In this document: positions 28,297 to 39,641 of the stretch, in pieces
Position numbering within the stretch: the stretch's first letter is position 1
Layout of the letters: each line of letters starts with the position of its first letter
NCBI GenBank assembly: GCA_049513975.1
Contig: JBEKVM010000029.1
Location: 12,783 to 76,782 of the forward strand
Direction: 5' to 3'
DNA: 64,000 bases
From: Verrucomicrobiota bacterium
GTDB lineage: Bacteria > Verrucomicrobiota > Verrucomicrobiia > Limisphaerales > Palsa-1400
Position numbers and translations under genes: made by a program
The notes under the pieces: generated by a model
Seen by the model: the letters and a program-made list of their open reading frames with translations, nothing else
What the model was told of the DNA's origin: nothing
The model's database searches: none

Positions 28297-28373
28297 CCGG
28301 AGCGTAGCTCAGCCTGGTAGAGCACTTGGTTTGGGACCAAGACGTCGCAGGTTCAAATCCTGTCGCTCCGACC
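28297..28373 (+). tRNA. tRNA-Pro(TGG), canonical, CCA encoded
   Basis: CGGAGCG-TA-GCTC-AGCCTGGTA-GAGC-A-CTTGG-TTTGGGA-CCAAG-ACGTC-GCAGG-TTCAAAT-CCTGT-CGCTCCG-A-CCA. D-loop GG and T-loop TTCAAAT are present. Confidence 0.95.
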
Positions 28374-29637: not shown

Positions 29638-29861
29638 ATTTTGCTCCTCTGGGGGAAATTCCCCCTTTGCTCGCGCATCCGCTCAAGAAACGCCTCAATA
29701 TCGCTTTGCATCAATCCCACCGCGCGGCCCACCCTCACCAAATGCGGCAGTTCGCCCCGGTCCGTCATCCGCCGCACCGACCGCACGCAAACACCCAGGC
29801 TGGCCGCAACCTCTCGCAATCTCATAACCCGGTCCAGTTTCTTTTCGCCTTCACCATTCAT
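29634..29861 (-). CDS. AlpA/excisionase-like helix-turn-helix protein
   Basis: MRLREVAASLGVCVRSVRRMTDRGELPHLVRVGRAV.. Overlaps the integrase start by 4 nt. Confidence 0.7.
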   Translation of the reverse strand: MNGEGEKKLDRVMRLREVAASLGVCVRSVRRMTDRGELPHLVRVGRAVGLMQSDIEAFLERMREQRGNFPQRSKI

Positions 29862-29877
29862 TTTTATCCTTTCATAC

Positions 29878-30393
29878 TCAAACCACCAGCCGACTTTCCA
29901 GATACGGCTTGGCCTTCTGCCGGGTTTCCGTGTTGATACAAAACCACTTCGCCCGAAGAATTCTGTCCGCCGACACGACATCCTCTTTCAGGAACAGCTT
30001 GGCACCCAGCCGGCCAAGCGGATTCCCAATGGCCTTGTCAATGTGACTCTCGTAAGCGACCCGGCTCTTGAACAAAAAGGCGAATGCCTCGGATTTCACC
30101 CAATTGGCAATGATCCGCGCGGAAGGCTCGATTGTGTCAAAAAACGCATTCCAACTCTTTTTGGGGTCGTTGAGCGCCTTCGTGATCGTGACGGCGCTTA
30201 ATTTGACGCCCTGTTCTTCCAGCAGGAACCGGCTGATTGCCCGCGCACTCATTCTTTGCGACGCCTCGAAAAGAAACGGGAACATTTCGATCACCAGCCC
30301 GCGATGGGCGGTGAACTCTGTTGATTTTGCGTGCCCGACCAATTTCAGGCCGATGTCAGTCGCACTCGTTGTTTTTTGATGGTCTTGTGCCAT
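29878..30393 (-). CDS. Hypothetical protein (island cargo)
   Basis: 171-aa ORF on the same strand as the island genes. No motif recognised. Confidence 0.45.
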   Translation of the reverse strand: MAQDHQKTTSATDIGLKLVGHAKSTEFTAHRGLVIEMFPFLFEASQRMSARAISRFLLEEQGVKLSAVTITKALNDPKKSWNAFFDTIEPSARIIANWVKSEAFAFLFKSRVAYESHIDKAIGNPLGRLGAKLFLKEDVVSADRILRAKWFCINTETRQKAKPYLESRLVV

Positions 30394-30580
30394 ATTGTTG
30401 GTGATCTTAACACCCTTATCAACCTTGTCAACCCCCTATTTTCAACAATTTTAAACACCGAGACCATGCCGCCACCCCCACCTCTGATAAAGGCATTTTC
30501 CCCGCGGCTCGTTCCCGTGTCGTCATCCGGCTTGCTAAAGGCAAGAAGGCCAAGCCGGATGCCAACACGCGAACGCTCCG

Positions 30581-30773
30581 CCCCGACAAGTGCCTGGTGG
30601 TGAAGTCGCTGGATTCCAGCTTGCGCCCTGTTTCCCCTTCGCAACATGGAATCCACCGCCATCACCACCAGGGAGTTGAAGGCAGCGCGGGCAGGCCGCT
30701 TTTGCGGGTCTCAATGATGTTTTCCGCTGTCGCGGAGGGGGAGAAATCAGACTGTGCCGTCACTCCATCTCCG
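30581..30773. repeat. R-module copy 2
   Basis: See 22394..22600. Confidence 0.7.
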
Positions 30774-30922
30774 AGGCCGCGAGGGACGATAACGCACGGA
30801 TGACGCCTAACACGGAAAGCTGAACCACCGCCGACTCGCGACGTGAGCCGCGTTAGCGAAACGGCAAGCGCCACCGGCGGTTCGCTCCGGCGACTTCGTT
30901 AGCCCACGGTGTCTTCACATTT

Positions 30923-31165
30923 CTAATGTCTCTTCCGCTCCCGGTCATAGTGCAGCTTCGTCGCAAAAGCCGCGACCACCAGAATCGGAACAGTGGCGAG
31001 AAGCCAAGGCAGTTCACGAGCGCCGAAGAGGGCCAGTGCGGCGAAGACGCCGATGACAAAATAGACACTCTCCCGACGATAACAGCACTGGCGATAGCTG
31101 CGACCGGAAGAACAAGCACAAGGCTCAATGAACTTCTTCGCCAGCCATGCCTTCGGACTTTTCAT
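30923..31165 (-). CDS. Small membrane protein with SEC-C-type Cys motif
   Basis: CACSSGRSYRQCC followed by two hydrophobic helices. Confidence 0.45.
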   Translation of the reverse strand: MKSPKAWLAKKFIEPCACSSGRSYRQCCYRRESVYFVIGVFAALALFGARELPWLLATVPILVVAAFATKLHYDRERKRH

Positions 31166-31287
31166 TGCAGTGTGCTTGGTGGCCTAAAGAAAAAAGCTGA
31201 ACCACCGCCGACCCGTGACGTGAACCGCGACAGCAGCACGAAAAGCGCCAACGGCGGTTGGCTCCGGCGACTTGTTTGGCGATGGGG

Positions 31288-31563
31288 TCATGACCTGAGT
31301 TCCGTGATGGCATAATAACCATACCTACCCAGTAAAATAATGGGGAAAACGCATAGGAGGCCTGCAACAACTCGCTGCCACATCACACCGTGGCGTAGCA
31401 CCGGAGCAACAAATAGCAATGCGAGACCGGCAAGTCCAAGATTCTCAAAATACCAAGAATCCGGATTTCTGTAGTCCTTAATGATGTAGCTAATGCGGCT
31501 CCAAAGAAACCACTGAACCGCGATGGCCCCAACGAACGCGAAAAGTGGATAGTTCTTTCTCAT
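31288..31563 (-). CDS. Small polytopic membrane protein
   Basis: 91 aa with three hydrophobic segments, AT-richer sequence. Confidence 0.45.
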   Translation of the reverse strand: MRKNYPLFAFVGAIAVQWFLWSRISYIIKDYRNPDSWYFENLGLAGLALLFVAPVLRHGVMWQRVVAGLLCVFPIILLGRYGYYAITELRS

Positions 31564-31566
31564 CCC

Positions 31567-31722
31567 AGAAGGATGTCGCCGCCGGCACCCAAAATCAAGC
31601 CTTTAATGCCGTTAATGCAGTTGTTCGTTTCAAATCAGCAGAGGGAACAACCGCTTTGCACCGGCCTGCCGAAGCCGGGGCACCGAACCGAGCAACGCCG
31701 GAATCCGCTCCATCCAAAATTC
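31567..31722. repeat. S-module copy 2 (Rep 3' end plus conserved leader)
   Basis: See 24001..24147. Confidence 0.7.
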
Positions 31723-32937
31723 AACGCCAGCAAATAGTTTGACAGTGAAATCCCGCGAGAACAACTGCCCCTTCCGCATCTTCGCCCGTTTCTCCTTCGG
31801 ACAGGTCGCCATGCGGTAACGGCGCATCACCCGGCGCAGTTTCAACGCCTGCCCGTTCGTCAACTCCAGTACATCCCGCCGACCGAGAGGCAGATTCTTG
31901 CGGCCAACAATGCCCCAAAACCGACCCGGCTTCGCGGACCAAATGCACTCGCCAATCTTCGCAACATACTTCTTCGCCGCGTACGCGAAGGCCCCACGCT
32001 TCGAGCCAAGCGTCTGAACCGACGTGCCCGCACGATAATGCTTCACCTCGCCGCTCCCAACCACGTCAAACCAATTCCGCGCAAACCAATTCGCAATCGA
32101 ATCTCCGTTCACCACAGACGGACACTTGCCATGCGGCTCCACACGAATGGCACACCATTCCTCGCGCTCATCCACCAAGGCACTGTGACCCTCCACCCAT
32201 TCGCCCCCGGCCAAAACATCCTCATCCCACACAACCACAAGTCCAATCATTCGGCGGCGCAAACGAACTTGCTCGGTCCGCATGGTCTTCCACTCGAAAC
32301 CCCACGGCACGCCCCAGACAAACGCATGGATATGCGGCGCGATCTTCCCCTTGTTCACCCCGCTTTTGCGAGGTTGAAATTCTAGCTTCCACATCAAACA
32401 GCCGTCAGGAAACCGACGGGCGAACCGCTTTGACATCGTATCAATGTGCCGCTTCACCTGTTCGCCATCCCAGGCGTAACGGTCAAACTCATCAGGATAC
32501 GTCAGACCCGCCATGAACGGCACCGCGCCATCTTCCACCTTCGCCAAGTAATCCAACATCCGCCGCCGTGACGCCGCCGTGAACTCCTCAATTTCGCCAC
32601 GCTCACCACCGCGACGCTCAGGCCCGCGCAAATGTCCCTCAGAACGGCACCGCAATTCCATGAAGCTCGCGTTGCGATAAACTTGCAACATGCCCTTGCT
32701 CGTATTTCGCGGTGAATTATGCACCTTAGACAAGCCAGGGCGAACGCATGTGGTCGGCGGCCAGGCGGCCGGTGAACCGTCCACCTGGCCACCGACCCGC
32801 ATTGCGGCGACAACGGCGGCAGCCTGCTCGAATGTAGTGACCGGGGAGGAATCGAAGGAATCATTGCGCACAATCCACCCCCAAACGCGACGCCCCAAGG
32901 AAAGTTGGCCCTCCCGCATCGTCCGTTGACACCACAT
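31630..32937 (-). CDS. Putative HUH-type rolling-circle replication initiator
   Basis: HUH-like APHIHAFVWG and Tyr motif AFAYAAKKYVAK. The start codon is not resolved. Confidence 0.55.
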   Translation of the reverse strand: MWCQRTMREGQLSLGRRVWGWIVRNDSFDSSPVTTFEQAAAVVAAMRVGGQVDGSPAAWPPTTCVRPGLSKVHNSPRNTSKGMLQVYRNASFMELRCRSEGHLRGPERRGGERGEIEEFTAASRRRMLDYLAKVEDGAVPFMAGLTYPDEFDRYAWDGEQVKRHIDTMSKRFARRFPDGCLMWKLEFQPRKSGVNKGKIAPHIHAFVWGVPWGFEWKTMRTEQVRLRRRMIGLVVVWDEDVLAGGEWVEGHSALVDEREEWCAIRVEPHGKCPSVVNGDSIANWFARNWFDVVGSGEVKHYRAGTSVQTLGSKRGAFAYAAKKYVAKIGECIWSAKPGRFWGIVGRKNLPLGRRDVLELTNGQALKLRRVMRRYRMATCPKEKRAKMRKGQLFSRDFTVKLFAGVEFWMERIPALLGSVPRLRQAGAKRLFPLLI

Positions 32938-33193
32938 TCCGCCGCAGAACCGGCGAGCAAAATGGCTCGCTGTCCGGTTCTGCTCGTTCTATTTCGCCGC
33001 CGTGCCGCCCTGGTATCACTGGCCCCCCTTGTCTGTGGCCGTGCTGGCAATGGCGAGGATTGCCACTTTGAGCGCCGCGTTGAGCCGGGGCCATGCCTTG
33101 ACTACTTGGGACAGGTCATGTAAGGAAGTGACCGGAGTTTGTGAGTCTCCTTGTGAGTCTCGCGTTGTAACTCCTTGATTATCAGCAGGCGGA

Positions 33194-33221
33194 GGCAGGT
33201 TCAAATCCTGTCGCTCCGACC
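33194..33221 (+). repeat. attR: duplicated tRNA-Pro 3' end
   Basis: Identical 28 bp to 28346..28373. Confidence 0.9.
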
Positions 33222-33346
33222 ACTTCATGACCCAGGGCTGGGGTTGGATTACCGGGTCGCCCGATCTGCAAATTCGCTCTTGCAGTTGGGTCGCTTTGAA
33301 TTGACAGCTTGGGAGAGCGAGCTTTTTGGCCCGCCCTCCCGGTGTT

Positions 33347-33931
33347 TTATTCCTTCACGAACAGCCTCCATTCGGGAATGCGGTGGGCGTTGCGGATGAG
33401 GGCGGAGGCCGGCAGCTCCTTGGGCGCGCGCGGCACGCGGAGCAATTTCAAGCCGGCTTCGTGGGGAAGGCGGTTGCCTTTGCGGGCGTTGACGTCTTTG
33501 CCGGCCCAAACCAGATTTTCCCAGGCGTTCTTGCCGCCGCGCGAACGGGGCAGGACGTGATCGAGGCTGCCATCTTCAGGGCGCAGGACGCGGCCGGTGT
33601 ATTGGCAGCGGTTGCCGTCGCGCTCGCGGATGGCGCGGGCGCAGAGCTTCGGGCGCTTCTTGGGCACCTTGGCGTAATTGACCGCGACGATGACCGTGGG
33701 CACACGGACCGGACCGCGGACGGTCCGCACGGCGTTGTCCTGCGGACGAATGGGCAGCGTGATCCACTCGTCCCAGGTCACGGGACGGATGTGGTTTTGG
33801 CCTTCGATGTCCAGAGCGGTCGCCACGTTGGTGGCCATCATGCAGAAGGCCTCCTGCGGCGTGCGAACGTTGACGGCCTGCCAGTTGCGGTTGAGCACCA
33901 GCACGAGCGATTTGTTCAGTATGTCATTCAT
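33347..33931 (-). CDS. HNH endonuclease
   Basis: Start MNDILNKS (ATG at 33931). HNH core CQYTG....LDHVLPRSRGGKNAWENLVWAGKDVNARKGN. Same strand as, and immediately downstream of, the tRNA-like array. Confidence 0.8.
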   Translation of the reverse strand: MNDILNKSLVLVLNRNWQAVNVRTPQEAFCMMATNVATALDIEGQNHIRPVTWDEWITLPIRPQDNAVRTVRGPVRVPTVIVAVNYAKVPKKRPKLCARAIRERDGNRCQYTGRVLRPEDGSLDHVLPRSRGGKNAWENLVWAGKDVNARKGNRLPHEAGLKLLRVPRAPKELPASALIRNAHRIPEWRLFVKE

Positions 33932-33937
33932 AAATTC

Positions 33938-34027
33938 AGTGATGAGTGGAGAGTGGAGAGTGATGAATGAAAAACCCGGCACTCCGCATTTCCCACTCTG
34001 CGCCCTGCACTCCCGACTCTGCATTTT
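33938..34027. repeat. Heptad-repeat hairpin a
   Basis: GAGTGGA/GAGTGAT/GAATGAA heptads face CACTCTG/CACTCCC/GACTCTG heptads. Confidence 0.7.
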
Positions 34028-34072
34028 CTTCCGGTGTTTGTTCTTTGTTGGTGCTTGCGCACAATTGGGAAT

Positions 34073-34147
34073 TGGCTGCCCCGCCTGGTTTTGCTCCAGG
34101 TCCTCCGGTTTCAGAGACCGGCGCACTCCTGAGTATGCAACGAGGCA
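34073..34147 (-). tRNA. tRNA-like Gln(CTG), CCA encoded
   Basis: TGCCTCG-TT-GCAT-ACTCAGGA-GTGC-G-CCGGT-CTCTGAA-ACCGG-AGGA-CCTGG-AGCAAAA-CCAGG-CGGGGCA-G-CCA. U1:A72 and G73. Confidence 0.7.
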
Positions 34148-34148
34148 A

Positions 34149-34222
34149 TGGTCGCCCGGGAAGGTTCTGCCCCTTCGATTTCTGGGTGTAGGCCGGACGT
34201 GATTCTATTTCACCACCGGGCG
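34149..34222 (-). tRNA. tRNA-like Val(TAC), CCA encoded
   Basis: CGCCCGG-TG-GTGA-AATAGAA-TCAC-G-TCCGG-CCTACAC-CCAGA-AATC-GAAGG-GGCAGAA-CCTTC-CCGGGCG-A-CCA. C33. Confidence 0.65.
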
Positions 34223-34240
34223 ATTTTGAGTTAAGAATTT

Positions 34241-34304
34241 GGAATGCGGAGTGCGGAATGAAGACGCCCCACTCTGCATTCTGCATTCTTCATTCTGCAT
34301 TTCC
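34241..34304. repeat. Heptad-repeat hairpin b
   Basis: GGAATGCGGAGTGCGGAATGAAGA...CTCTGCATTCTGCATTCTTCATTCTGCATTTCC. Confidence 0.75.
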
Positions 34305-34307
34305 GAG

Positions 34308-34381
34308 TGGCTGCCGGGGCTGGAGTTGCACCAACATATGCGCCTTCAAAGGGCGCTGTCCTACGATTAGACGACCCGGCA
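34308..34381 (-). tRNA. tRNA-like Gln(TTG), CCA encoded
   Basis: TGCCGGG-TC-GTCT-AATCGTA-GGAC-A-GCGCC-CTTTGAA-GGCGC-ATAT-GTTGG-TGCAACT-CCAGC-CCCGGCA-G-CCA. U1:A72 and G73. Confidence 0.75.
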
Positions 34382-34390
34382 AATGGGAAA

Positions 34391-34469
34391 TGATGAAGGA
34401 TGGAGGATGAAGGAAGAATTGAGGGCCGCTGCGATGTTTTGACTTCATCCTTCTTCCTTCATCCTTCTT
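34391..34469. repeat. Heptad-repeat hairpin c
   Basis: GATGAAGGATGGAGGATGAAGGAAGAA...TTCATCCTTCTTCCTTCATCCTTCTT. Confidence 0.75.
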
Positions 34470-34479
34470 ACTGGAAGAG

Positions 34480-34553
34480 TGGTGGCCCGCCAGGGTAACG
34501 CTCCCTGTTCAACGGCTTAAAAGACCGTTGCATCACTTTAATGCTTGCAGGCC
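34480..34553 (-). tRNA. tRNA-like Lys(TTT), CCA encoded
   Basis: GGCCTGC-AA-GCAT-TAAAGTG-ATGC-A-ACGGT-CTTTTAA-GCCGT-TGAA-CAGGG-AGCGTTA-CCCTG-GCGGGCC-A-CCA. A8. Confidence 0.75.
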
Positions 34554-34557
34554 ATGA

Positions 34558-34651
34558 CGATTGCGGATTGGCGATTGCGGATTGCGGATTTGAAGACAAA
34601 GGTCCGGCTGTCCGGGCGCGCTCTCAATTCGCAATTCGCAATCCGCAATTG
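34558..34651. repeat. Heptad-repeat hairpin d
   Basis: GATTGCGGATTGGCGATTGCGGATTGCGGATT...AATTCGCAATTCGCAATCCGCAATT. Confidence 0.75.
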
Positions 34652-34656
34652 AAAGA

Positions 34657-34728
34657 TGGAGCCTCCAGCCGGTGCTGCCCCGGCACGAATTCTTTACAAA
34701 AGAAATCCACAGGCTGCTGCATGGAGGC
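34657..34728 (-). tRNA. tRNA-like Thr(TGT), CCA encoded, reduced D-arm
   Basis: GCCTCCA-TG-CAGCAGCCTGTGGA-TTTCT-TTTGTAA-AGAAT-TCGT-GCCGG-GGCAGCA-CCGGC-TGGAGGC-T-CCA. Confidence 0.55.
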
Positions 34729-34766
34729 GCATTGGCTCGACGGGCCGTAGCTCGAAGAGCGAAGGC

Positions 34767-34838
34767 TGGTCGCAGTCCCCAGTGCTGCCCTGGGCAGAGC
34801 GGGCGTATGAAACCTGCCTGAGCGCTGGCTCGACTGCG
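34767..34838 (-). tRNA. tRNA-like with CAT anticodon (Met/Ile2 type), weak anticodon stem
   Basis: CGCAGTC-GA-GCCAGCGCTCAGG-CAGGT-TTCATAC-GCCCG-CTCTG-CCCAG-GGCAGCA-CTGGG-GACTGCG-A-CCA. Confidence 0.45.
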
Positions 34839-34883
34839 GTGGGCGAATGGCCGTCTTGGGGAAGGGCTTCACACGACCGAAAT

Positions 34884-34993
34884 TGGCGTCCCTGACCGGC
34901 TTTGCTCCCGCCTACGTTCAGATGCTACGGCGGGCAAGCCGGTGATCTCCTGCATGAGAGGCAGGCGTGTTGGCTGGGCTACACTACAGGGAT
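34884..34993 (-). tRNA. tRNA-like Glu(CTC) with about 39-nt hairpin insertion in the T-loop
   Basis: ATCCCTG-TA-GTGT-AGCCCAGCCA-ACAC-G-CCTGC-CTCTCAT-GCAGG-AGATC-ACCGG-[39 nt, CCCGCC..GGCGGG hairpin]-CCGGT-CAGGGAC-G-CCA. Confidence 0.4.
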
Positions 34994-34998
34994 GGAAT

Positions 34999-35090
34999 TG
35001 GTGCGCGCGTCCGGTAACGCTCCGGAACCCGGCACTGATCTAGTGCGATGCGGGGTATAAAGCCGCCGGCTCTCTTTGAGCTACGCGCGC
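34999..35090 (-). tRNA. Class II (long variable arm) tRNA-like, anticodon ambiguous (TAT best fit, TTA alternative)
   Basis: GCGCGCG-TA-GCTC-AAAGA-GAGC-CG-GCGGC-TTTATAC-CCCGC-ATC-GCACT-AGATC-AGTGC-CGGGT-TCCGG-AGCGTTA-CCGGA-CGCGCGC-A-CCA. Confidence 0.5.
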
Positions 35091-35095
35091 GCAAA

Positions 35096-35183
35096 TGGCG
35101 GAATGCCGTGGAGTTGCGCCACATGCCCGAAGGCACGCACTCGTTAGCACCGAGGCCCGGCTCGCTCGTCCGGTTGACATTCC
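35096..35183 (-). tRNA. tRNA-like Ser(GCT), class II, CCA encoded
   Basis: GGAATGT-CAA-CCGG-ACGAGCGAG-CCGG-GC-CTCG-GTGCTAA-CGAG-TGC-GTGCC-TTCG-GGCA-TGTGG-CGCAACT-CCACG-GCATTCC-G-CCA. Confidence 0.65.
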
Positions 35184-35186
35184 AAA

Positions 35187-35261
35187 TGGTGCCCGTGGCA
35201 GGACTTGCGCCTGCACTGTCGAAGGTTTGAGCTTCGCGCCTCTGCCTTGGGCTACACGGGC
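35187..35261 (-). tRNA. tRNA-like Leu(CAA) with short (class I) variable loop
   Basis: GCCCGTG-TA-GCCC-AAGGCAG-AGGC-G-CGAAG-CTCAAAC-CTTCG-ACAGT-GCAGG-CGCAAGT-CCTGC-CACGGGC-A-CCA. Confidence 0.75.
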
Positions 35262-35264
35262 TGT

Positions 35265-35339
35265 TGGTGCCCACGGCCGGATTTGCACCGACACTGGGCG
35301 CGTTTTAAGTGCGCTGTCTCTGCGTTGGACTACATGGGC
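35265..35339 (-). tRNA. tRNA-like Leu(TAA) with short variable loop
   Basis: GCCCATG-TA-GTCC-AACGCAG-AGAC-A-GCGCA-CTTAAAA-CGCGC-CCAGT-GTCGG-TGCAAAT-CCGGC-CGTGGGC-A-CCA. Confidence 0.7.
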
Positions 35340-35343
35340 AAGT

Positions 35344-35419
35344 TGGTACCGCGTGAAGGAATTGCACCCTCAACCTTCCCGTTCTGAGCGGGACGCCTCT
35401 GCTGTTGGGCTAACGCGGC
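35344..35419 (-). tRNA. tRNA-like Leu(CAG) with short variable loop
   Basis: GCCGCGT-TA-GCCC-AACAGCAG-AGGC-G-TCCCG-CTCAGAA-CGGGA-AGGTT-GAGGG-TGCAATT-CCTTC-ACGCGGT-A-CCA. Confidence 0.75.
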
Positions 35420-35425
35420 CTGGAT

Positions 35426-35501
35426 TGGCACTCCCGGAAGGACTCTCACCCTCATCTTCGACGTTCGAAGCGTCGCGCTCTGGTGATTGAGCTACGGGAG
35501 C
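35426..35501 (-). tRNA. tRNA-like Arg(TCG), CCA encoded
   Basis: GCTCCCG-TA-GCTC-AATCACCA-GAGC-G-CGACG-CTTCGAA-CGTCG-AAGAT-GAGGG-TGAGAGT-CCTTC-CGGGAGT-G-CCA. Confidence 0.75.
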
Positions 35502-35503
35502 GG

Positions 35504-35610
35504 GAAGAAGTGCAAAATGCGGAATGCAGAATGCAGAATGAAATGCCGCACACCATGCCTTGCCTTCGGGATGGTCTCACTCTGCATTCTTCACTCTCAA
35601 TTCTCCATTC
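35504..35610. repeat. Heptad-repeat hairpin e
   Basis: GAAGTGCAAAATGCGGAATGCAGAATGCAGAATGAAATG...CACTCTGCATTCTTCACTCTCAATTCTCCATTC. Confidence 0.75.
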
Positions 35611-35614
35611 GAAA

Positions 35615-35689
35615 TGGTGGGTTGCCGCGGAATTGCACCGCGTTCTCGCCGGTTAAGAGCCGGGACTTCACTGTAAAAGTTTGCAACCC
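35615..35689 (-). tRNA. tRNA-like Lys(CTT), CCA encoded
   Basis: GGGTTGC-AA-ACTT-TTACAGTG-AAGT-CCCGG-CTCTTAA-CCGGC-GAGAA-CGCGG-TGCAATT-CCGCG-GCAACCC-A-CCA. A8. Confidence 0.7.
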
Positions 35690-35691
35690 GG

Positions 35692-35768
35692 ACGCGACGC
35701 GATGGCGGAGTTGAACCGCCGCAGCCAGGTCTGTGAGGCCCTTGCCGGCACCGGTGTTCGCGTCGCGT
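35692..35768 (-). other. Hairpin element: 11-bp closing stem enclosing a T-arm with a canonical-type loop, not a cloverleaf
   Basis: Plus-strand arms ACGCGACGCGA (35692..35702) and TCGCGTCGCGT (35758..35768) pair. The minus sense contains GGCGG-TTCAACT-CCGCC. No anticodon arm could be found. Confidence 0.4.
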
Positions 35769-35819
35769 AAGTAATAATCGTCGTTGTTGATTGTCTCCAA
35801 AGGACGTAACAATCCAGGC

Positions 35820-36581
35820 ATGACGATTCCGGCTGAATTGCTGCAACGCCTGGCCGCCGCCAAAAGCGTGACGGTGCTGACGGGCGCCGGCGTGTCGGCG
35901 GAAAGCGGGGTCCCCACATTTCGCGATGCCCAGACCGGGCTGTGGGCGAAATTCAGTCCCGAAGAACTGGCCACGCCGCGCGCCTTCCGGCGAAATCCCC
36001 GCCTGGTTTGGGAATGGTATGAATGGCGGCGTGAGCTTGTCGCCGCCGCCAAGCCAAACCCGGCGCACCTCGCCCTGGCAGAAATGGAGAAGGTCTTTCC
36101 GCGGTTCCATCTCATCACGCAAAACGTGGACGGTCTGCATCAACGCGCTGGAAGCCGGCGGGTCATCGAACTGCACGGCAATATCATGCGCACGAAATGT
36201 TTTGACGAGGGCACGCTGGTTTCGAGTTGGAAAGACACCGGCGATGTCCCGCCGAAATGCCCGGCCTGTGGCGGCTGGTTGCGCCCCGACGTGGTTTGGT
36301 TTGAAGAGGCAATGCCGGAAGCGGAGATGGCACAGGCCGCGACGGCGAGCACGCATTGCGACGTCTTTTTTTCCATCGGCACGTCCACTGTTGTTTATCC
36401 CGCGGCCGCCCTGCCAGCGGAAGCGTTGCGCAGCGGGGCGACCGTGGCGGAGATCAATCCGCAACCCACACCATTCACGCCGCAGGCGCATTTTGCTCTG
36501 GCTGGGGCGGCCGGGGTTGTGTTGCCCGAATTGATGGAGGGCCTCAACGCCGTGCGTGGCGGGCTGCGCGCGTCGTCGTAG
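35820..36581 (+). CDS. cobB: Sir2-family NAD-dependent protein deacylase (CobB-like)
   Basis: GAGVSAESGVPTFRD, QNVDGLHQRAG, Zn ribbon C..C...CPACGG, FFSIGTS. Start MTIPAELL at 35820. Opposite strand to the array. Confidence 0.85.
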   Translation: MTIPAELLQRLAAAKSVTVLTGAGVSAESGVPTFRDAQTGLWAKFSPEELATPRAFRRNPRLVWEWYEWRRELVAAAKPNPAHLALAEMEKVFPRFHLITQNVDGLHQRAGSRRVIELHGNIMRTKCFDEGTLVSSWKDTGDVPPKCPACGGWLRPDVVWFEEAMPEAEMAQAATASTHCDVFFSIGTSTVVYPAAALPAEALRSGATVAEINPQPTPFTPQAHFALAGAAGVVLPELMEGLNAVRGGLRASS

Positions 36582-36636
36582 GCCCACCTCCGCTCTACGA
36601 GCTACGGCGGCCAACCTTCGCCGCGGCGAAGGTTGG
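36582..36636 (-). repeat. Partial E-type repeat with a perfect 12-bp hairpin that pairs the CCA of the Cys tRNA-like
   Basis: CCAACCTTCGCC-GC-GGCGAAGGTTGG (36611..36636) followed by CCGCCGTAGCTCGTAGAGCGG, homologous to the E repeats. Abuts the sirtuin stop codon. Confidence 0.55.
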
Positions 36637-36708
36637 AATCCCGTGCTGGAATTGCACCAGCCTTTGCGGTTCTGCAGACCGCCGCCTGAGCTGCTCGGCC
36701 AACGGGAC
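36634..36708 (-). tRNA. tRNA-like Cys(GCA), CCA encoded
   Basis: GTCCCGT-TG-GCCG-AGCAGCTCA-GGC-G-GCGGT-CTGCAGA-ACCGC-AAAG-GCTGG-TGCAATT-CCAGC-ACGGGAT-T-CCA. U73. Confidence 0.75.
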
Positions 36709-36720
36709 GCACTTCAAAAT

Positions 36721-36795
36721 TGGGGTGACCAACCGGAGTTGCACCGGCACAAACGCCGTCACGGGGCGTGATGCTGCTGTTACATCATGATCACC
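36721..36795 (-). tRNA. tRNA-like His(GTG) with encoded G-1 and C73
   Basis: (G-1)GTGATCA-TG-ATGT-AACAGCA-GCAT-C-ACGCC-CCGTGAC-GGCGT-TTGT-GCCGG-TGCAACT-CCGGT-TGGTCAC-C-CCA. C33. Confidence 0.75.
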
Positions 36796-36798
36796 ATG

Positions 36799-36892
36799 GC
36801 AAAAGTGCAAAGTTGTGAACGCAAAGTGCAGAGTGGAAGGCACCATGTTCGCGTCCTTCCATTCTTCACTCTGCATTCTGCCTTCTTCACTC
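36799..36892. repeat. Heptad-repeat hairpin f
   Basis: AAAGTGCAAAGTTGTGAACGCAAAGTGCAGAGTGGAAGG...CCTTCCATTCTTCACTCTGCATTCTGCCTTCTTCAC. Confidence 0.7.
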
Positions 36893-36895
36893 AAA

Positions 36896-36971
36896 TGGAG
36901 CCCCTGGCCGGACTCGCACCGGCGGATACGAGTTTACGAAACTCGCCCTGTTGCTGCTGAGGCACGGGGGC
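36896..36971 (-). tRNA. tRNA-like Thr(CGT), CCA encoded
   Basis: GCCCCCG-TG-CCTC-AGCAGCAAC-AGGG-CGAGT-TTCGTAA-ACTCG-TATCC-GCCGG-TGCGAGT-CCGGC-CAGGGGC-T-CCA. U73, as in the other Thr unit. Confidence 0.65.
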
Positions 36972-36973
36972 GG

Positions 36974-37099
36974 GAAAGAAAGGATGAAGGATGAAGGCTG
37001 AAGGCTAAAGTAAAGGCAAAAGCGAGCGATCAACAAGAGATTCTAATGCTCGCTGAGCAATCTTTTCCTTCATCCTTCATACTTCTTCCTTCTTACTTC
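36974..37099. repeat. Heptad-repeat hairpin g
   Basis: AAGGATGAAGGATGAAGGCTGAAGGCTAAAG...CCTTCATCCTTCATACTTCTTCCTTCTTACTTC. Confidence 0.7.
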
Positions 37100-37104
37100 A
37101 AAAC

Positions 37105-37150
37105 TGGCGCTCTCACATGGATTTGCACCATGAGGTTCTGGCTTCGTTAC
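37105..37150 (-). pseudogene. 3' fragment of a tRNA-like unit (CCA, acceptor strand, T-arm CATGG-TGCAAAT-CCATG), truncated at the adjacent CDS
   Basis: Plus strand TGG-C-GCTCTCA-CATGG-ATTTGCA-CCATG. No matching 5' acceptor strand. The region beyond 37147 is the 3' end of the ORF. Confidence 0.45.
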
Positions 37151-37719
37151 GGCCAAACACTCGCCCGGTTTGTCGCCAGGTTGTCGAGAATCCAGGTTTT
37201 GTTGCGAAGCGGAAAAAGAGTTAATCTCGACATGTTGTCAACATTACTGGCGGCCTCCCGGACCTCGGCCATATTCGGCAGGCGGACGTAATTGCTGCCT
37301 TCGATCATCACCTGGGGTGCTCGGTGCTCCATGTAGTCCCGTACGTAGCTGCCCAGGGAGCCGCTGTTCGGCGGCCAGTCCGAGGACCGTGGAAGATTCG
37401 TGGAACCACTCCGAAGATCAACGACAAATACCAACATGGACGTGTCGTCGTCGTCCACACACAAGAAGCGTTTGCCGTCCGCAAAAGCATAGAGACAAAG
37501 AGGACAATCAAAAAAGTCGCCCCATATACTGAACAACTTGGTTTCGCCGGCATAGACGGGATATTCCTTGTCCCCCCACCACAGAGGTGCTGGGAGCTTG
37601 ACAGCCGCCACGACTTTCCCGTTTGCGCGAAGCTTCACACTGCGCGTTCCCAATAGCTGCCATAGCGCCAAGCCAATGGCGGCGACTATGAGAATAAGAA
37701 TGACGATTCGTCGTTTCAC
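37147..37719 (-). CDS. Hypothetical membrane-anchored protein
   Basis: MKRRIVILILIVAAIGLALW anchor. Lower GC. Sits inside the array on the array strand. Confidence 0.5.
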   Translation of the reverse strand: MKRRIVILILIVAAIGLALWQLLGTRSVKLRANGKVVAAVKLPAPLWWGDKEYPVYAGETKLFSIWGDFFDCPLCLYAFADGKRFLCVDDDDTSMLVFVVDLRSGSTNLPRSSDWPPNSGSLGSYVRDYMEHRAPQVMIEGSNYVRLPNMAEVREAASNVDNMSRLTLFPLRNKTWILDNLATNRASVWP

Positions 37720-37810
37720 GATGTGCAGCGCCTGGAATCTATAAGCCTGGAACGCCCCTCGTAGCCATCATAAATTCGGGCTGACTCAGTTTCTTGCATT
37801 TAGAGCAAAT

Positions 37811-37888
37811 TGGCATCCGTGATCGGACTCGCACCGATTAGGCCCGGCTTGAAAGACCGGCTGCTCGATCTGCTTTGCATTCACGGAC
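37811..37888 (-). tRNA. tRNA-like Glu(TTC), CCA encoded, enlarged D-loop
   Basis: GTCCGTG-AA-TGC-AAAGCAGATCGA-GCA-G-CCGGT-CTTTCAA-GCCGG-GCCTA-ATCGG-TGCGAGT-CCGAT-CACGGAT-G-CCA. Confidence 0.65.
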
Positions 37889-37909
37889 TAATTGCGCAGG
37901 ACTGAGAAT

Positions 37910-37984
37910 TGGCCCCCGAGGTTGGTATCGCGCCAACGTCTCCTCCTCTTCAGGGAGGCGCTAATCTTCCTCAGCTACCCGGGG
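37910..37984 (-). tRNA. tRNA-like Phe(GAA), CCA encoded
   Basis: CCCCGGG-TA-GCTG-AGGAAGATT-AGC-G-CCTCC-CTGAAGA-GGAGG-AGAC-GTTGG-CGCGATA-CCAAC-CTCGGGG-G-CCA. Confidence 0.75.
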
Positions 37985-37990
37985 AATGAA

Positions 37991-38062
37991 TGGCCCGGTA
38001 GAGGGAGACTCTGTCGAGCTGTGACTAAATCGAGTCAGGGTTCGACGGAGTCTCCCTACCGG
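37991..38062 (-). ncRNA. CCA-terminated rod-like hairpin (acceptor-like stem stacked on a 7-bp stem, no cloverleaf)
   Basis: CCGGTAG-G-GAGACTC-C-GTCGA-ACCC-TGACT-CGATTT-AGTCA-CAGC-TCGAC-A-GAGTCTC-CCT-CTACCGG-G-CCA. Confidence 0.4.
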
Positions 38063-38070
38063 GAAAAGTA

Positions 38071-38141
38071 TCGTCCCGGCAGGTAATGCTCCTGCGTCTT
38101 CCGGTTATCAGCCGGGCGCTCTGCTCTTGAGCTACAGGACG
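38071..38141 (-). tRNA. tRNA-like Ile(GAT), the only member without an encoded CCA
   Basis: CGTCCTG-TA-GCTC-AAGAGCA-GAGC-G-CCCGG-CTGATAA-CCGGA-AGAC-GCAGG-AGCATTA-CCTGC-CGGGACG-A, followed by TAC. Confidence 0.7.
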
Positions 38142-38287
38142 GTGGTTAGTTGCGGTTTCAGGCCGAAGCGTTTGGCGGGGCGGAACACGATGTTCAGCTT
38201 GCCGATTGGCCGGATGCGCATGGCCCGATTTAGTTGGCAGCGCTTGCGAAAGAGCAACTGGCTTTGACAGCGGACAATGGGTTTCAT
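38132..38287 (-). CDS. Possible 51-aa very basic small ORF (below the ORF-track cutoff)
   Basis: ATG at 38287 with AAAGG 8 nt upstream. MKPIVRCQSQLLFRKRCQLNRAMRIRPIGKLNIVFRPAKRFGLKPQLTTVL*. The stop codon lies inside the 5' end of the Ile tRNA-like. Confidence 0.25.
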   Translation of the reverse strand: MKPIVRCQSQLLFRKRCQLNRAMRIRPIGKLNIVFRPAKRFGLKPQLTTVL

Positions 38288-38316
38288 GGGATTACCTTTC
38301 GTTAAGGGTTTGGAAT

Positions 38317-38418
38317 TGGCTTGCCGGGCCGAAGCCGCTTCCGGGAGGAGACATGGCCCGTCTTGGCTTCGCTTCGACGCGGCAGCCTGCGCCGCCCGCT
38401 GATGGAGGCGGCGAAAGC
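38317..38418 (-). repeat. E repeat copy 1 (CCA-terminated structured repeat plus hairpin)
   Basis: Family shared with 38919.., 39193.. and 39468... The plus strand starts AATTGGC(C/T)TGCC and ends GGCGAA(A/G)GCTGG. Confidence 0.6.
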
Positions 38419-38509
38419 TGGCGGAAGGCGTCGGTAACGCTCCGACCTCGGGTTTGAGCCGATCCTGTTTTCGGGACAGGCGCAGCCAGCTTATATCTGC
38501 CTGCCTTCC
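38419..38509 (-). tRNA. tRNA-like Ser(CGA), class II, CCA encoded
   Basis: GGAAGGC-AG-GCAG-ATATAAGCTGG-CTGC-G-CCTGT-CCCGAAA-ACAGG-A-TCGG-CTCAAAC-CCGA-G-GTCGG-AGCGTTA-CCGAC-GCCTTCC-G-CCA. C33. Confidence 0.7.
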
Positions 38510-38513
38510 TTAA

Positions 38514-38588
38514 GTGGAGAGTTGGGAGTAAAGAGTGTAGAATCGAAAATGCCTGTATTCTGCACTCTGCACTTTGCACTCTGCATTC
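38514..38588. repeat. Heptad-repeat hairpin h
   Basis: GTGGAGAGTTGGGAGTAAAGAGTGTAGAATCG...TATTCTGCACTCTGCACTTTGCACTCTGCATTC. Confidence 0.7.
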
Positions 38589-38592
38589 AAAA

Positions 38593-38666
38593 TGGCTGCC
38601 AGACTTGGACTCGCACCAAGACAAGCGGCTTAACAGGCCGCCGTGCTACTTTGACACCACCTGGCA
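38593..38666 (-). tRNA. tRNA-like Asn(GTT), CCA encoded
   Basis: TGCCAGG-TG-GTGT-CAAAGTAG-CAC-G-GCGGC-CTGTTAA-GCCGC-TTGT-CTTGG-TGCGAGT-CCAAG-TCTGGCA-G-CCA. Confidence 0.75.
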
Positions 38667-38668
38667 AT

Positions 38669-38745
38669 TGGCGCTGCCGGCAGGATTTGCACCCGCATAA
38701 GTTCGTTTAGAAGACGAACGCCTCATCTCGTTCGGCCACGGCAGC
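38669..38745 (-). tRNA. tRNA-like Arg(TCT), CCA encoded
   Basis: GCTGCCG-TG-GCCG-AACGAGATGA-GGC-G-TTCGT-CTTCTAA-ACGAA-CTTAT-GCGGG-TGCAAAT-CCTGC-CGGCAGC-G-CCA. Confidence 0.75.
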
Positions 38746-38754
38746 TTTTGGAAA

Positions 38755-38830
38755 TGGTCGGAATGGCAGGGTTTTCACCTGCGGCCTCCCGGTCCCAAGC
38801 CGGGTGCTCTAAAGACTGAGCTACATTCCG
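38755..38830 (-). tRNA. tRNA-like Pro(TGG), CCA encoded
   Basis: CGGAATG-TA-GCTC-AGTCTTTA-GAGC-A-CCCGG-CTTGGGA-CCGGG-AGGCC-GCAGG-TGAAAAC-CCTGC-CATTCCG-A-CCA. Confidence 0.75.
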
Positions 38831-38837
38831 TGAAGAA

Positions 38838-38913
38838 TGGCGGACCCGAAGGGAGTTGCACCCTCAACCCTCCCGCAGACAACGGGGCGCTCTGCTGATT
38901 GAGCTACGAGTCC
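38838..38913 (-). tRNA. tRNA-like Asp(GTC), CCA encoded
   Basis: GGACTCG-TA-GCTC-AATCAGCA-GAGC-G-CCCCG-TTGTCTG-CGGGA-GGGTT-GAGGG-TGCAACT-CCCTT-CGGGTCC-G-CCA. Confidence 0.7.
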
Positions 38914-38918
38914 GAAAT

Positions 38919-39019
38919 TGGCCTGCCCGCCGAAGCTGCGCAGGACGAGGCGTAAAGCCCGCCTTCGCTAAAGCTACGGCGCGGCAGCCTTCGCCCGCCG
39001 TTGCACAGCGGGCGAAGGC
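38919..39019 (-). repeat. E repeat copy 2
   Basis: Minus sense: GCCTTCGCCCGC-TGTGCAACG-GCGGGCGAAGGC hairpin, then CTGCCGCGCCGTAGCTTTAGCGAAGGCGGGCTTTACGCCTCGTCCTGCGCAGCTTCGGCGGGCAG-G-CCA. Confidence 0.65.
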
Positions 39020-39107
39020 TGGTGGGAAGTGCTGGTAACGCTCCAGTCGTCGCTTCCGACATGTTTTGAGACGTCCGGGTTACGGCCGGATTGCCGGATC
39101 ACTTCCC
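39020..39107 (-). tRNA. tRNA-like Tyr(GTA)?, 88 nt, D-arm reduced, long extra arm
   Basis: GGGAAGT-GA-TCCGGCAA-TCCGG-CCGTAAC-CCGGA-CGTCTCAAAACATGTCGGAAGCGACG-ACTGG-AGCGTTA-CCAGC-ACTTCCC-A-CCA. C33. Alternative folds are possible. Confidence 0.45.
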
Positions 39108-39113
39108 TGAAAT

Positions 39114-39186
39114 TGGTAGCGGGGGTGGGAGTTGCGCCCACGGAGGCAGAGCTTATGAGGCTCGCCTGAATCTCATTCTCCCCGCA
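39114..39186 (-). tRNA. tRNA-like Met-type (CAT), 1:72 mismatch, tiny D-loop
   Basis: TGCGGGG-A-GAAT-GAG-ATTC-AGGC-GAGC-CTCATAA-GCTC-TGCCTCC-GTGGG-CGCAACT-CCCAC-CCCCGCT-A-CCA. Confidence 0.55.
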
Positions 39187-39192
39187 GTGAAA

Positions 39193-39293
39193 TGGCCTGC
39201 CAGCCGTAGCTGTGCAGGACGAGGCGTAACGTCGGCCTTCGCTAAAGCTACGGCGCGGCAGCCTTCGCCCGCCGTTGCACAGCGGGCGAAGGC
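39193..39293 (-). repeat. E repeat copy 3
   Basis: Near-identical to copy 2 over the hairpin and the CGGCGCGGCAGCCTTCGCCCGCCGTTGCACAGCGGGCGAAGGCTGG block. Confidence 0.65.
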
Positions 39294-39368
39294 TGGTGGA
39301 GTCGGTGGGTAACGCTCCCACATCGGCTTGCTTGCAGGGCAAGTGCATTGCTTGTCTGCCACGACCCC
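39294..39368 (-). tRNA. tRNA-like Ala(TGC) with G3:U70
   Basis: GGGGTCG-TG-GCA-GACAAGCAA-TGC-A-CTTGC-CCTGCAA-GCAAG-CCGAT-GTGGG-AGCGTTA-CCCAC-CGACTCC-A-CCA. Position 3 G pairs with position 70 T. C33. Confidence 0.75.
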
Positions 39369-39383
39369 ATAAAGTCAAAAGAA

Positions 39384-39457
39384 TGGCAAGCCGCCCTGGT
39401 GCTGCCCCAGGCAAGCTGAGTTTTGGAGACTCTGCTGCACAGGCTGGTGCGCGACTT
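39384..39457 (-). tRNA. tRNA-like Trp(CCA), CCA encoded
   Basis: AAGTCGC-GCAC-CAGCCT-GTGC-AGCA-GAGT-CTCCAAA-ACTC-AGCTTG-CCTGG-GGCAGCA-CCAGG-GCGGCTT-G-CCA. Confidence 0.6.
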
Positions 39458-39467
39458 GTTTTGGAAT

Positions 39468-39567
39468 TGGCCTGCCAGCCGCAGCCGCGCAGGAGGAAAC
39501 GAAAAGCCCGCCTTCGCTGAAGCTGCGGCGGGCAGCCTTCACCCGTTGACATGCAGCGGGGGAAGGC
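39468..39567 (-). repeat. E repeat copy 4 (most diverged)
   Basis: The plus strand starts AATTGGCCTGCCAGCCGCAGCCGCGCAGG and ends GCAGCGGGGGAAGGCTGG. Confidence 0.55.
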
Positions 39568-39641
39568 TGGTGCGGTTGCCGGGAGTTGCGCCCGGACTTC
39601 CTCCGTGGCGGGGAGGCATTCTGCTGTTAAATCACAACCGC
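39568..39641 (-). tRNA. tRNA-like Gly(GCC), CCA encoded
   Basis: GCGGTTG-TG-ATTT-AACAGCAG-AAT-G-CCTCC-CCGCCAC-GGAGG-AAGT-CCGGG-CGCAACT-CCCGG-CAACCGC-A-CCA. C33. Confidence 0.75.

Follow-up and report, generated by a model that had tools for sequence, protein, structure and literature searches.

E copies at the 3' ends of tRNA-like units

We analysed a stretch of 64,000 nucleotides from a Verrucomicrobiota bacterium (Limisphaerales; contig JBEKVM010000029.1), referred to here as the window, which carries an array of tRNA-like genes on its minus strand, and characterized a repeat of about 100 nt, named E, located at the 3' ends of several units of this array. A profile built from full E copies identified six copies or fragments in the 64-kb window, all of them on the minus strand (E1 to E6, Table 1). 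The repeat reported by an earlier sequence-only reading was therefore real, while its copy number, given there as four to five, had to be corrected to six, the mini form E6 being the addition. In all six cases the start of E was the CCA of the preceding tRNA-like unit, in agreement with the earlier claim that a conserved hairpin begins with the tRNA's own CCA. The units preceding E1 (Gly-GCC-like), E2 (Ala-TGC) and E5 (Cys-GCA) were called by Rfam or ARAGORN, while the units upstream of E3, E4 and E6 were tRNA-like by eye only and the long-arm unit that hosts E3 received neither an ARAGORN nor an Rfam call.

Pairwise identity between the copies ranged from 71 to 94%, with E2 and E3 as the closest pair (94%) and E4 as the most divergent full copy (71–74% to the other copies), and E1, E2 and E3 were spaced by 274–275 nt. 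E5 ended exactly at the stop codon of a convergent sirtuin gene (SIR2, 35784–36581, plus strand), as had been noticed before, and E6 was of the same type as mini copies of 33–47 nt found in four other loci of our collection (L018, L028, L026 and L083). Pattern and profile scans detected no E copy away from a tRNA end in the 64-kb window, and the number of chance matches expected from shuffles was 0 for the 20-mer GCCGTAGCTTTAGCGAAGGC and for two E patterns.

Structure and covariation of E

Five conserved blocks, B1 to B5, were defined in the full copies (Table 1). B1 and B2 form a first hairpin, HP1, whose foot holds the C-A of the CCA paired with U-G. According to RNAfold, A76 pairs with U, and C75 can pair with the next G, but the program gives that G to the second hairpin; in E5 all three bases of the CCA are paired. 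HP1 is followed by CCGCGCC, which opens a rod formed by B3 and B4, with a 7-bp outer stem, one bulged G and a purine-rich 3x3 internal loop, to which longer variants add an inner GCTC/GAGC stem (RNAalifold). After a variable stretch comes B5, which can pair with B3 (GCCGNAGC:GCTNCGGC) and with CTGCC after HP1, giving an acceptor-stem-like helix and then G-CCA. The segment that follows HP1 had been described as one that could not be folded into a cloverleaf and that contained a D-arm-like GTAGCT motif; instead, it consists of the covarying B3:B4 rod and of B5 ending in GCCA, and the supposed D-arm motif belongs to the inner GCTC/GAGC stem of the rod. When tRNA-Ala(TGC) and E2 were folded together, the tRNA and E folded independently and stably. 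In a second architecture, common in soil metagenomes, a long HP1 bears B5 at its tip, and the mini forms (33–47 nt) consist of B1 and B5.

No tRNA, ribozyme or other Rfam family matched any E copy at E<=5 (Rfam 15), and ARAGORN made no call on E. None of the 11 terminator-like sites predicted between 33800 and 40200 fell within E, which has no U-tract, nor was E predicted to carry a promoter. A hairpin resembling B3:B4, GCCCGCCGTAGCATCTGAACGTAGGCGGGAGC, was also present within the T-loop region of a tRNA-Met-like unit (34907–34937, minus strand), and thus a module of E occurs inside a tRNA-like gene.

The sequence-only reading had suggested a test of the stems for compensatory changes, and an alignment of the copies showed such changes both in the window and among 17 full relatives. 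The stem that follows the CCA reads CCAGCC/GGCTG in E1 to E4 and CCAACC/GGTTGG in E5, while the inner stem of HP1 reads CGCCCGC/GCGGGCG in E2 and CGCCGCC/GGCGGCG in E4. In the 17 full copies, a fold comprising HP1, B3:B4 and a small B5 hairpin left 96.9% of the cells paired, as compared with 27–51% when the partners were slid; double changes were present at six pairs, and the observed covariation score was reached by none of 500 shuffles. With 123 unique instances of HP1, the first pair after the C-A (pair 3) occurred in all four Watson–Crick forms (GC 113, AT 5, CG 2, TA 1), and pair 11 was CG in 47, TA in 46 and GC in 5. The free positions of B3:B4 behaved similarly in 147 unique instances (CG 84 and TA 47 at one, CG 113, TA 17 and AT 6 at the other). 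The B3:B5 helix was paired in 94.3% of cells but had one variable pair only, so that its support was weaker than that of B3:B4. We considered a long rod formed by B3:B5 as the main fold and rejected it, its sole variable pair being broken in 6 of 15 sequences; where B3 changes, B4 compensates and B5 merely wobbles, which is compatible with B3:B5 as an alternative or secondary pairing. Mismatches in the stems were G-U in 47 cases and A-C in 19 (p=0.0008). The excess of G-U over A-C points to pairing that acts in the tRNA-sense single strand and fits RNA and top-strand single-stranded DNA alike; a co-transcribed RNA is the more likely of the two.

An open reading frame (ORF) of 192 aa that spans E1 to E3 (38974–39552) was rejected as a coding sequence; it had no Pfam match and is explained by the repeated GC-rich sequence. 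The compensatory changes in the stems also speak for a structure and against a coding function.

E at tRNA and tmRNA 3' ends in other genomes

A degenerate pattern derived from the positions invariant in the window copies was used to scan one genome per species, with about 0.01 chance matches expected by our own calculation. The scan yielded 24 loci in metagenome-assembled genomes of Verrucomicrobiales, Opitutales, Limisphaerales, Acidobacteriota, Alphaproteobacteria and Gammaproteobacteria, in which B4 and B5 were conserved although they lay outside the search pattern. According to ARAGORN, E in these loci begins on the three terminal bases of ordinary genes for tRNA-Ala, Val, Leu, Ser and Arg, or of the transfer-messenger RNA (tmRNA) gene. 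Metagenomes were scanned with a pattern of B2-B3-B4 only, which includes neither B1 nor the CCA, and at least 120 loci were obtained. Among the matches listed, 112 cores had enough upstream sequence; in 68 of them a tRNA or tmRNA gene of the same strand ended no more than 150 nt upstream of the core, and in 80 no more than 400 nt upstream. Over all loci, 92 B1 motifs among the matches listed started exactly at a tRNA or tmRNA CCA (ARAGORN 3' ends); they follow tmRNA genes, tRNA genes of 18 named types and one tRNA gene that could not be typed. CCA was encoded in 197 of 205 host tRNA genes; as these genes encode it anyway, the CCA belongs to the tRNA gene.

In phage and plasmid collections, blastn with the E region matched tRNA genes only. 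A viral scan with a pattern limited to HP1 was discarded as too loose, since it gave six chance matches in coding DNA; a second scan of IMG/VR contigs gave three stretches, two that look genuine and one attributable to chance, and E is thus rare in these viral contigs. Taken together, these results indicate that E is not local to the tRNA array of the window but is a widespread element in several bacterial phyla.

Filled and empty sites in homologous arrays

Homologous tRNA arrays (L018, L028, L083, L103 and L143) carried E at different tRNAs. At tRNA-Ala(TGC), the window reads ..GACTCCA-CCA(GCCTTCG...GGCAGGCCA)TTTCACTGCGGGGAG, the site being filled by E2, while L028 reads ..GACTCCA-CCC-TTTCACTGCGGGGAG and is empty, which corresponds to a 102-nt indel between near-identical flanks (in short, CCA(102 nt)TTTCAC in the window and CCCTTTCAC in the relative). 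At tRNA-Arg(TCT), a 34-nt mini copy follows the CCA in L028 but has no counterpart in L018, L083 or the window, and the Ile-GAT, Phe, Thr-CGT and Arg-TCG sites were also polymorphic between arrays. The element was always in the tRNA sense and exactly after the CCA, tandem copies began at the GCCA of the preceding copy, and at the far end of the element only CCA recurred as a repeat (tRNA-Ala and tRNA-Arg(TCT) sites). In L151 (tRNA-Ala) and L155 (tmRNA), whose genes have no encoded CCA tail, the element follows C71-C72-A73, which argues for recognition of the acceptor-helix end at the DNA level, through sequence and structure, and not for recognition of the mature tRNA. An RNA-mediated origin of the tRNA-CCA-E junction through a reverse transcriptase was disfavoured, given these two loci without a CCA tail and the lack of any reverse transcriptase recurring near E among the matches listed.

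Two further observations concern these sites. Downstream of tRNA-Arg(TCT), L083 (1385–1450, minus strand) reads CCA-ACCA-TTGCC and L018 (4370–4432, minus strand) reads CCA-TTGCC, and the CCA-ACCA of L083 may be the footprint of the loss of a mini E, with a duplicated CCA. The tRNA-Ile(GAT) of the window (38071–38141, minus strand) has no CCA after its discriminator and is followed by another hairpin, with 25-bp arms (38002–38057), and then by GCCATTCATTCC, while the orthologous tRNA in L018, L028 and L083 has a mini E of 33–37 nt at that spot instead; the hairpin with 25-bp arms may represent a second element family at the same site.

A small GIY-YIG gene next to E

In several loci, translation of the sequence downstream of E revealed small ORFs of the GIY-YIG family (PF01541 at E=1e-13 to 1e-14). 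Of 108 cores among the matches listed, 31 had a GIY-YIG ORF that began on the same strand no more than 300 nt downstream. To survey the neighbourhood of E, all stop-free segments lying up to 1.5 kb from E were subjected to unbiased clustering, for 144 loci among the matches listed. A GIY-YIG protein of about 80 aa was the only real recurrent family, present in 39 of these loci, and neither an integrase nor a Y1/RAYT (HUH) transposase nor a reverse transcriptase recurred within that distance, so that the association of E with GIY-YIG was exclusive. The same order was found when loci were chosen by the protein alone: three independent loci carried tRNA-Ala, tRNA-Pro or tmRNA, then E, then GIY-YIG. 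In L028, a Limisphaerales array homologous to that of the window, E and GIY-YIG lie between two tRNAs. The window copies themselves are gene-less, and about 30% of copies elsewhere have the gene of about 80 aa directly downstream.

A homologue search retrieved 1247 proteins at E<=1e-5 among 1254 candidates, and the listed homologues were 56–85% identical to the query. Y5, Y7, Y19, R29, H33 and N34 were invariant and E65 nearly so; we take these seven residues to be catalytic by analogy with GIY-YIG enzymes. The homologues carry no more specific names in their sources than 'putative endonuclease' or 'excinuclease ABC C subunit domain', and the nearest solved structure by sequence was the uncharacterised UPF0213 protein 1ZG2. 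In plasmids, tblastn with the GIY-YIG protein gave no match.

Copies that bear the ORF were often trailed by a partial second E, of about 75 nt in L019 and shorter in L008, L155, L153 and L151. In L019 (3650–4260, minus strand), L008 (6655–7450), L153 and L155 the GIY-YIG ORF lies between direct repeats of E segments, with a full E upstream and a partial E without B1 downstream, and in L153 and L154 units of partial E plus ORF are arranged in tandem. The layout of the repeats suggests that the ORF may be integrated through recombination involving E and may be lost through recombination between the repeats.

The host array and its neighbourhood

The array of the window begins just past the right end of an integrative element of 4.85 kb inserted in tRNA-Pro (28298–33222), which has a 28-bp direct repeat of the tRNA 3' end (att repeats, 28347–28374 and 33195–33222) and carries a tyrosine integrase (28309–29637, minus strand) and a weakly Rep-like ORF (31630–32937, minus strand). 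Arrays homologous to that of the window were present in L018, L028, L083, L103, L143 and L108. In many units of the window array the T-loop is unusual (GGTGCAACTCC or GGAGCGTTACC in place of GGTTCGAATCC) and the D-loop has no GG, and several units are missed by both ARAGORN and Rfam. The spacers between groups of tRNAs contain AT-rich repeats of a heptamer type (TGCAGAA, TGAAGGA, ATTGCGG) that form long imperfect hairpins and constitute a separate repeat family (Table 1). A 190-aa ORF inside the array (37147–37719, minus strand) had no Pfam match. In the homologous array L018, positions 2996–3127 (minus strand) gave a weak match to YrlA, a Y RNA-like family, of 40.7 bits, below the gathering score of 69. 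A SIR2 gene adjoins E not only in the window, where it is convergent, but also in two Verrucomicrobiales chromosomes (L013 and L017), in the order tRNA-Ser, E, SIR2 on the same strand; this may be a coincidence or a conserved neighbourhood.

Table 1. Position of E, its parts and associated features in the window, with the block consensus of full E copies
Feature	Position	Strand	Description
E1	39468..39570	-	Full copy, 103 nt; nhmmer E=8.9e-18, pattern matches, fold; 3' end is GGCAGGCCA
E2	39193..39296	-	Full copy, 104 nt, after tRNA-Ala(TGC); nhmmer E=1.2e-19; tRNA+E fold
E3	38919..39022	-	Full copy, 104 nt; nhmmer E=2.2e-20; RNAfold z=-4.8
E4	38317..38421	-	Full copy, 105 nt, after Ser-CGA-like unit; nhmmer E=4.1e-15
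E5	36582..36636	-	5' part, ~55 nt, with short HP1 and B3:B4; nhmmer E=3.3e-8, model positions 1-71
E6	34731..34769	-	Mini form, 39 nt, with B1, short hairpin and degenerate B5: CCAGCCTTCGCTCTTCGAGCTACGGCCCGTCGAGCCAAT
HP1 of E3	38985..39022	-	CCAGCCTTCGCCCGC-TGTGCAACG-GCGGGCGAAGGCTG; C-A of CCA pairs with T-G
HP1 of E1	39533-39570	-	
HP1 of E2	39259-39296	-	
HP1 of E4	38383-38421	-	
HP1 of E5	36612-36636	-	
B3:B4 rod of E3	38957..38984	-	CCGCGCC-GTA-GCT..AGC-GAA-GGCGGGC; RNAalifold
B5 of E3	38919..38936	-	GCTTCGGCGGGCAGGCCA; 3' terminal block
B1			Consensus of full copies, CCAGCCTTCGCC
B2			Consensus of full copies, GGCGAAGGCTG
B3			Consensus of full copies, CC(G)CGCCGNAGCT
B4			Consensus of full copies, AGCGAAGGCGGGC
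B5			Consensus of full copies, GCTNCGGC..GGCARGCCA
tRNA Gly-GCC-like	39571..39641	-	Rfam RF00005, 50.8 bits; its CCA (39568-39570) is the first 3 bases of E1
tRNA-Ala(TGC)	39297..39368	-	ARAGORN; upstream of E2
tRNA-Cys(GCA)	36637..36708	-	ARAGORN and Rfam; upstream of E5
tRNA array	~34076-39641	-	At least 25 tRNA-like genes (ARAGORN, Rfam); HNH gene at downstream end, SIR2 gene inside
Heptamer-repeat spacers	34230-34310, 34385-34475, 34560-34650, 35505-35610, 36800-36895, 36975-37105, 38515-38592		

Discussion

Our results indicate that E is probably a site-specific selfish element with miniature derivatives. The copies of the window are probably gene-less members, either non-autonomous or decayed, of a family of small selfish elements that targets the 3' ends of tRNA and tmRNA genes after the CCA and in a single orientation. 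E shares two features with GIY-YIG homing-endonuclease elements: relatives of the window copies have a GIY-YIG ORF with intact catalytic residues, and sites such as tRNA-Ala and tRNA-Arg(TCT) are filled or empty between conserved flanks.

The following account of its movement and of the role of its RNA is inferred. Because its orientation is constant and no promoter of its own is predicted, the element would be co-transcribed with the tRNA. Its hairpins, on which selection probably acts in the RNA, would allow the trailer to fold by itself and to be cut away from an unharmed tRNA, and the second CCA-ended helix might mark the 3' end of that trailer. The GIY-YIG nuclease, which resembles UPF0213 and Slx1, is predicted to make a break that leads to copying of the element into 'stem + CCA' sites that are still empty or into E copies already in place, so that the element would spread by homing or gene conversion rather than by classical transposition. 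Loss of the ORF by recombination between the flanking E repeats could then give rise to the common gene-less form, and the copies of the window may have spread with the horizontally mobile tRNA array or may have been mobilised in trans.

Several observations weigh against this interpretation. The 64-kb window contains no GIY-YIG gene, and therefore any activity on its copies would have been exerted in trans or in the past. The nuclease consists of a catalytic domain of about 80 aa with no obvious DNA-binding module for recognising 'stem + CCA', and a bare CCA is too short to account for its specificity. About 30–40% of the cores among the matches listed had no ARAGORN tRNA nearby; many of these lie at non-canonical array tRNAs or at tmRNA pieces that escape ARAGORN, and some look like non-tRNA sites. 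The junctions are equally consistent with a 3-bp duplication of the target CCA and with a CCA brought in by the element, and the G-U bias fits top-strand single-stranded DNA (ssDNA) as well as RNA. Orthologous copies in Verrucomicrobiales (L013/L017 and L019/L022/L025) have diverged in their loops and kept their blocks, which would also fit a function selected by the host. Finally, the nuclease activity, the E transcript and its processing site are predicted from sequence.

A host function was in fact the first explanation offered for E: by masking the acceptor end, the repeat could affect 3' processing, CCA availability or transcription termination in this tRNA cluster. In the form considered here, E would be a cis-regulatory RNA, kept because pairing of the CCA governs 3' maturation, CCA availability or read-through of its tRNA, and any mobility would be incidental. 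This explanation would explain why the C-A of the CCA is paired in every copy of a covarying stem, why G-U prevails over A-C, why the blocks of L013 and L017 are kept while their loops drift, and why tRNA and E fold independently and stably. However, the same blocks stand behind tmRNA and no fewer than 18 types of tRNA, chromosomal ones included, across three phyla, a distribution that a vertically conserved regulator cannot produce. Orthologous tRNAs in sister arrays have no E and differ by clean indels, E is linked to a nuclease gene, it contains no U-tract, and mini and tandem forms exist, so that we consider a control device of this cluster unlikely. Pairing of the CCA is a built-in feature of the 5' hairpin of the element and not a regulator evolved by this array, and it is most simply a consequence of the insertion site and of how the element must fold next to the tRNA; an effect of E on the 3' processing of the tRNAs that carry it is possible. 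A ribozyme that cuts the tRNA 3' trailer, like the theta ribozymes of phages, would share with E its position and a structured RNA that starts at the tRNA 3' end (PMC10879173), and the strongly conserved loop and junction bases of E (the GNA/GAA internal loop and the UNCG-like GCUNCGGC) would suit a self-cleaving RNA. Against it, no Rfam ribozyme family matches at E<=5, HP1 loops of 3–4 nt (L008 and E5) leave no room for the nested pseudoknot of ribozymes like that of hepatitis delta virus (HDV), and mini forms of 33–47 nt persist, which makes self-cleavage very unlikely.

The other two explanations concern the origin of E. It might be a miniature element of the IS200/IS605 or REP type, moved as ssDNA by an HUH (Y1) transposase encoded elsewhere, with GIY-YIG as a passenger or helper. 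Hairpins at both ends (HP1 at the 5' end and the B5 hairpin or helix at the 3' end), insertion in a single orientation precisely behind a short sequence and without inverted terminal repeats, as in IS200/IS605-type elements, and a 3' end (..GCCA) that resembles the target are all in line with this possibility, and the strand-specific G-T bias also fits top-strand ssDNA. Yet no Y1/RAYT or other transposase recurs near the 144 loci among the matches listed, the copies that look autonomous carry GIY-YIG instead of TnpA, and no window copy lies away from a tRNA end. In addition, the GTAG tag is not conserved, the candidate position N in GCCGNAGC being A, T or C across copies, and the target CCA lies inside the foot of a hairpin, unlike at the ends of IS608. 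An element of this kind is improbable. The notion that the E copies are pseudo-tRNAs, that is, decayed tRNA genes or fragments left by duplication of the array, could draw on the resemblance of the GTAGCTC..GAGC motif to a D-arm, on the G-CCA 3' end and on the 274–275-nt spacing of E1 to E3. It is already contradicted by this analysis, and we regard it as extremely unlikely: E gave no tRNA or tRNA-like match at E<=5 and no ARAGORN call, its covarying pairs form two hairpins and not a cloverleaf, and E is also found behind solitary chromosomal tRNA and tmRNA genes remote from any array. None of these four explanations accounts jointly for the cross-phylum distribution at tRNA ends, the clean indels and the exclusive link to GIY-YIG.

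Among known systems, phage T4 SegB is encoded by a free-standing GIY-YIG homing endonuclease gene in a tRNA cluster (PMC2330249). Like the E family, it is a small GIY-YIG gene among or next to tRNA genes whose presence varies at a defined site; unlike it, SegB is a larger enzyme that cuts within the tRNA genes of the competing phage and has no conserved non-coding hairpin module, while the E family has only the catalytic domain of about 80 aa, a junction exactly at the CCA and mostly gene-less copies on the chromosomes of several phyla. The host array of the window resembles the 'L-arrays', long tRNA arrays that spread horizontally with an adjacent HNH gene (PMC8421152), in being a horizontally mobile tRNA array with an HNH gene (33347–34126, minus strand) at its end. 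REP, BIME and REPIN sequences with RAYT, and IS200/IS605 elements with their miniature derivatives (Di Nocera 2013, PMC3733652), share with E the modular, short, GC-rich and strand-specific hairpins, the excess of gene-less over gene-carrying copies and insertion beside a short sequence without terminal inverted repeats. E differs from them in its GIY-YIG instead of Y1 HUH protein, in the lack of a GTAG/CGTC tag and in its location at tRNA and tmRNA 3' ends instead of scattered intergenic positions.

Theta ribozymes, which are minimal HDV-like ribozymes, adjoin the 3' ends of phage tRNAs, and only 4.5% of the tRNAs associated with them encode CCA (PMC10879173). They resemble E in being structured RNAs that begin where a tRNA ends and that are proposed to deal with the 3' trailer, and they are co-transcribed with the tRNA, as is predicted for E; in contrast, E consists of two plain hairpins without a double pseudoknot or an Rfam match, its tRNAs encode CCA, it resides on bacterial chromosomes and in arrays whereas theta ribozymes occur in gut phages, and it is linked to a nuclease gene. 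Islands and prophages with a tyrosine integrase also use the tRNA or tmRNA 3' end as a landing site, but E has no associated integrase, repeats at most the CCA as compared with 15–50 bp of the tRNA, measures 35–400 nt and not kilobases, and uses many tRNAs within one family. In compact eukaryotic genomes, the retrotransposons TRE of Dictyostelium and Ty3 of yeast target tRNA genes (PMC5006619). They resemble E in using many types of tRNA genes as a 'safe haven', while they are RNA-mediated, target RNA polymerase III complexes and insert tens of bp away, whereas E has no reverse transcriptase and an exact junction.

In agreement with the earlier statement that no equivalent is described, neither the full-text literature searched nor the curated families of Rfam 15 contained a description of E, although a prior description elsewhere is possible; the papers on Geobacter 'multicopy sequences' and the survey of GTAG/CGTC REPs describe other repeats. 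More tentatively, and as a possibility rather than a probability, E and its GIY-YIG protein of about 80 aa might constitute a previously undescribed class of bacterial mobile element for which the target, the terminus of the tRNA acceptor helix ('stem + CCA'), would be recognised through its structure. Such an element would use a minimal, structure-specific nuclease resembling Slx1 and its own hairpins, one embedding the target CCA and another mimicking an NCCA-ended acceptor stem and so regenerating the target, and it would copy itself in by a process that is neither classical transposition, integrase recombination nor standard sequence-specific homing. There is a real chance that the targeting mechanism is new.

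If our interpretation is correct, the abundant soil phyla Acidobacteriota and Verrucomicrobiota, together with some Proteobacteria, carry a common and unannotated selfish element at the 3' ends of their tRNA and tmRNA genes, which would be a bacterial counterpart to the 'safe haven' strategy so far described mainly for eukaryotic retrotransposons. It would account for the conserved 'RNA-like' hairpins and the spurious ORFs (..RRSFSEGG..) found beside tRNA genes, and it bears on the calling of tRNA 3' ends and on the reading of tRNA operon transcripts. Possible applications are a compact nuclease guided by structure and a marker with which to follow how tRNA arrays spread. Finally, the association would give a testable role to a very large and uncharacterised family of stand-alone GIY-YIG proteins of about 80 aa.

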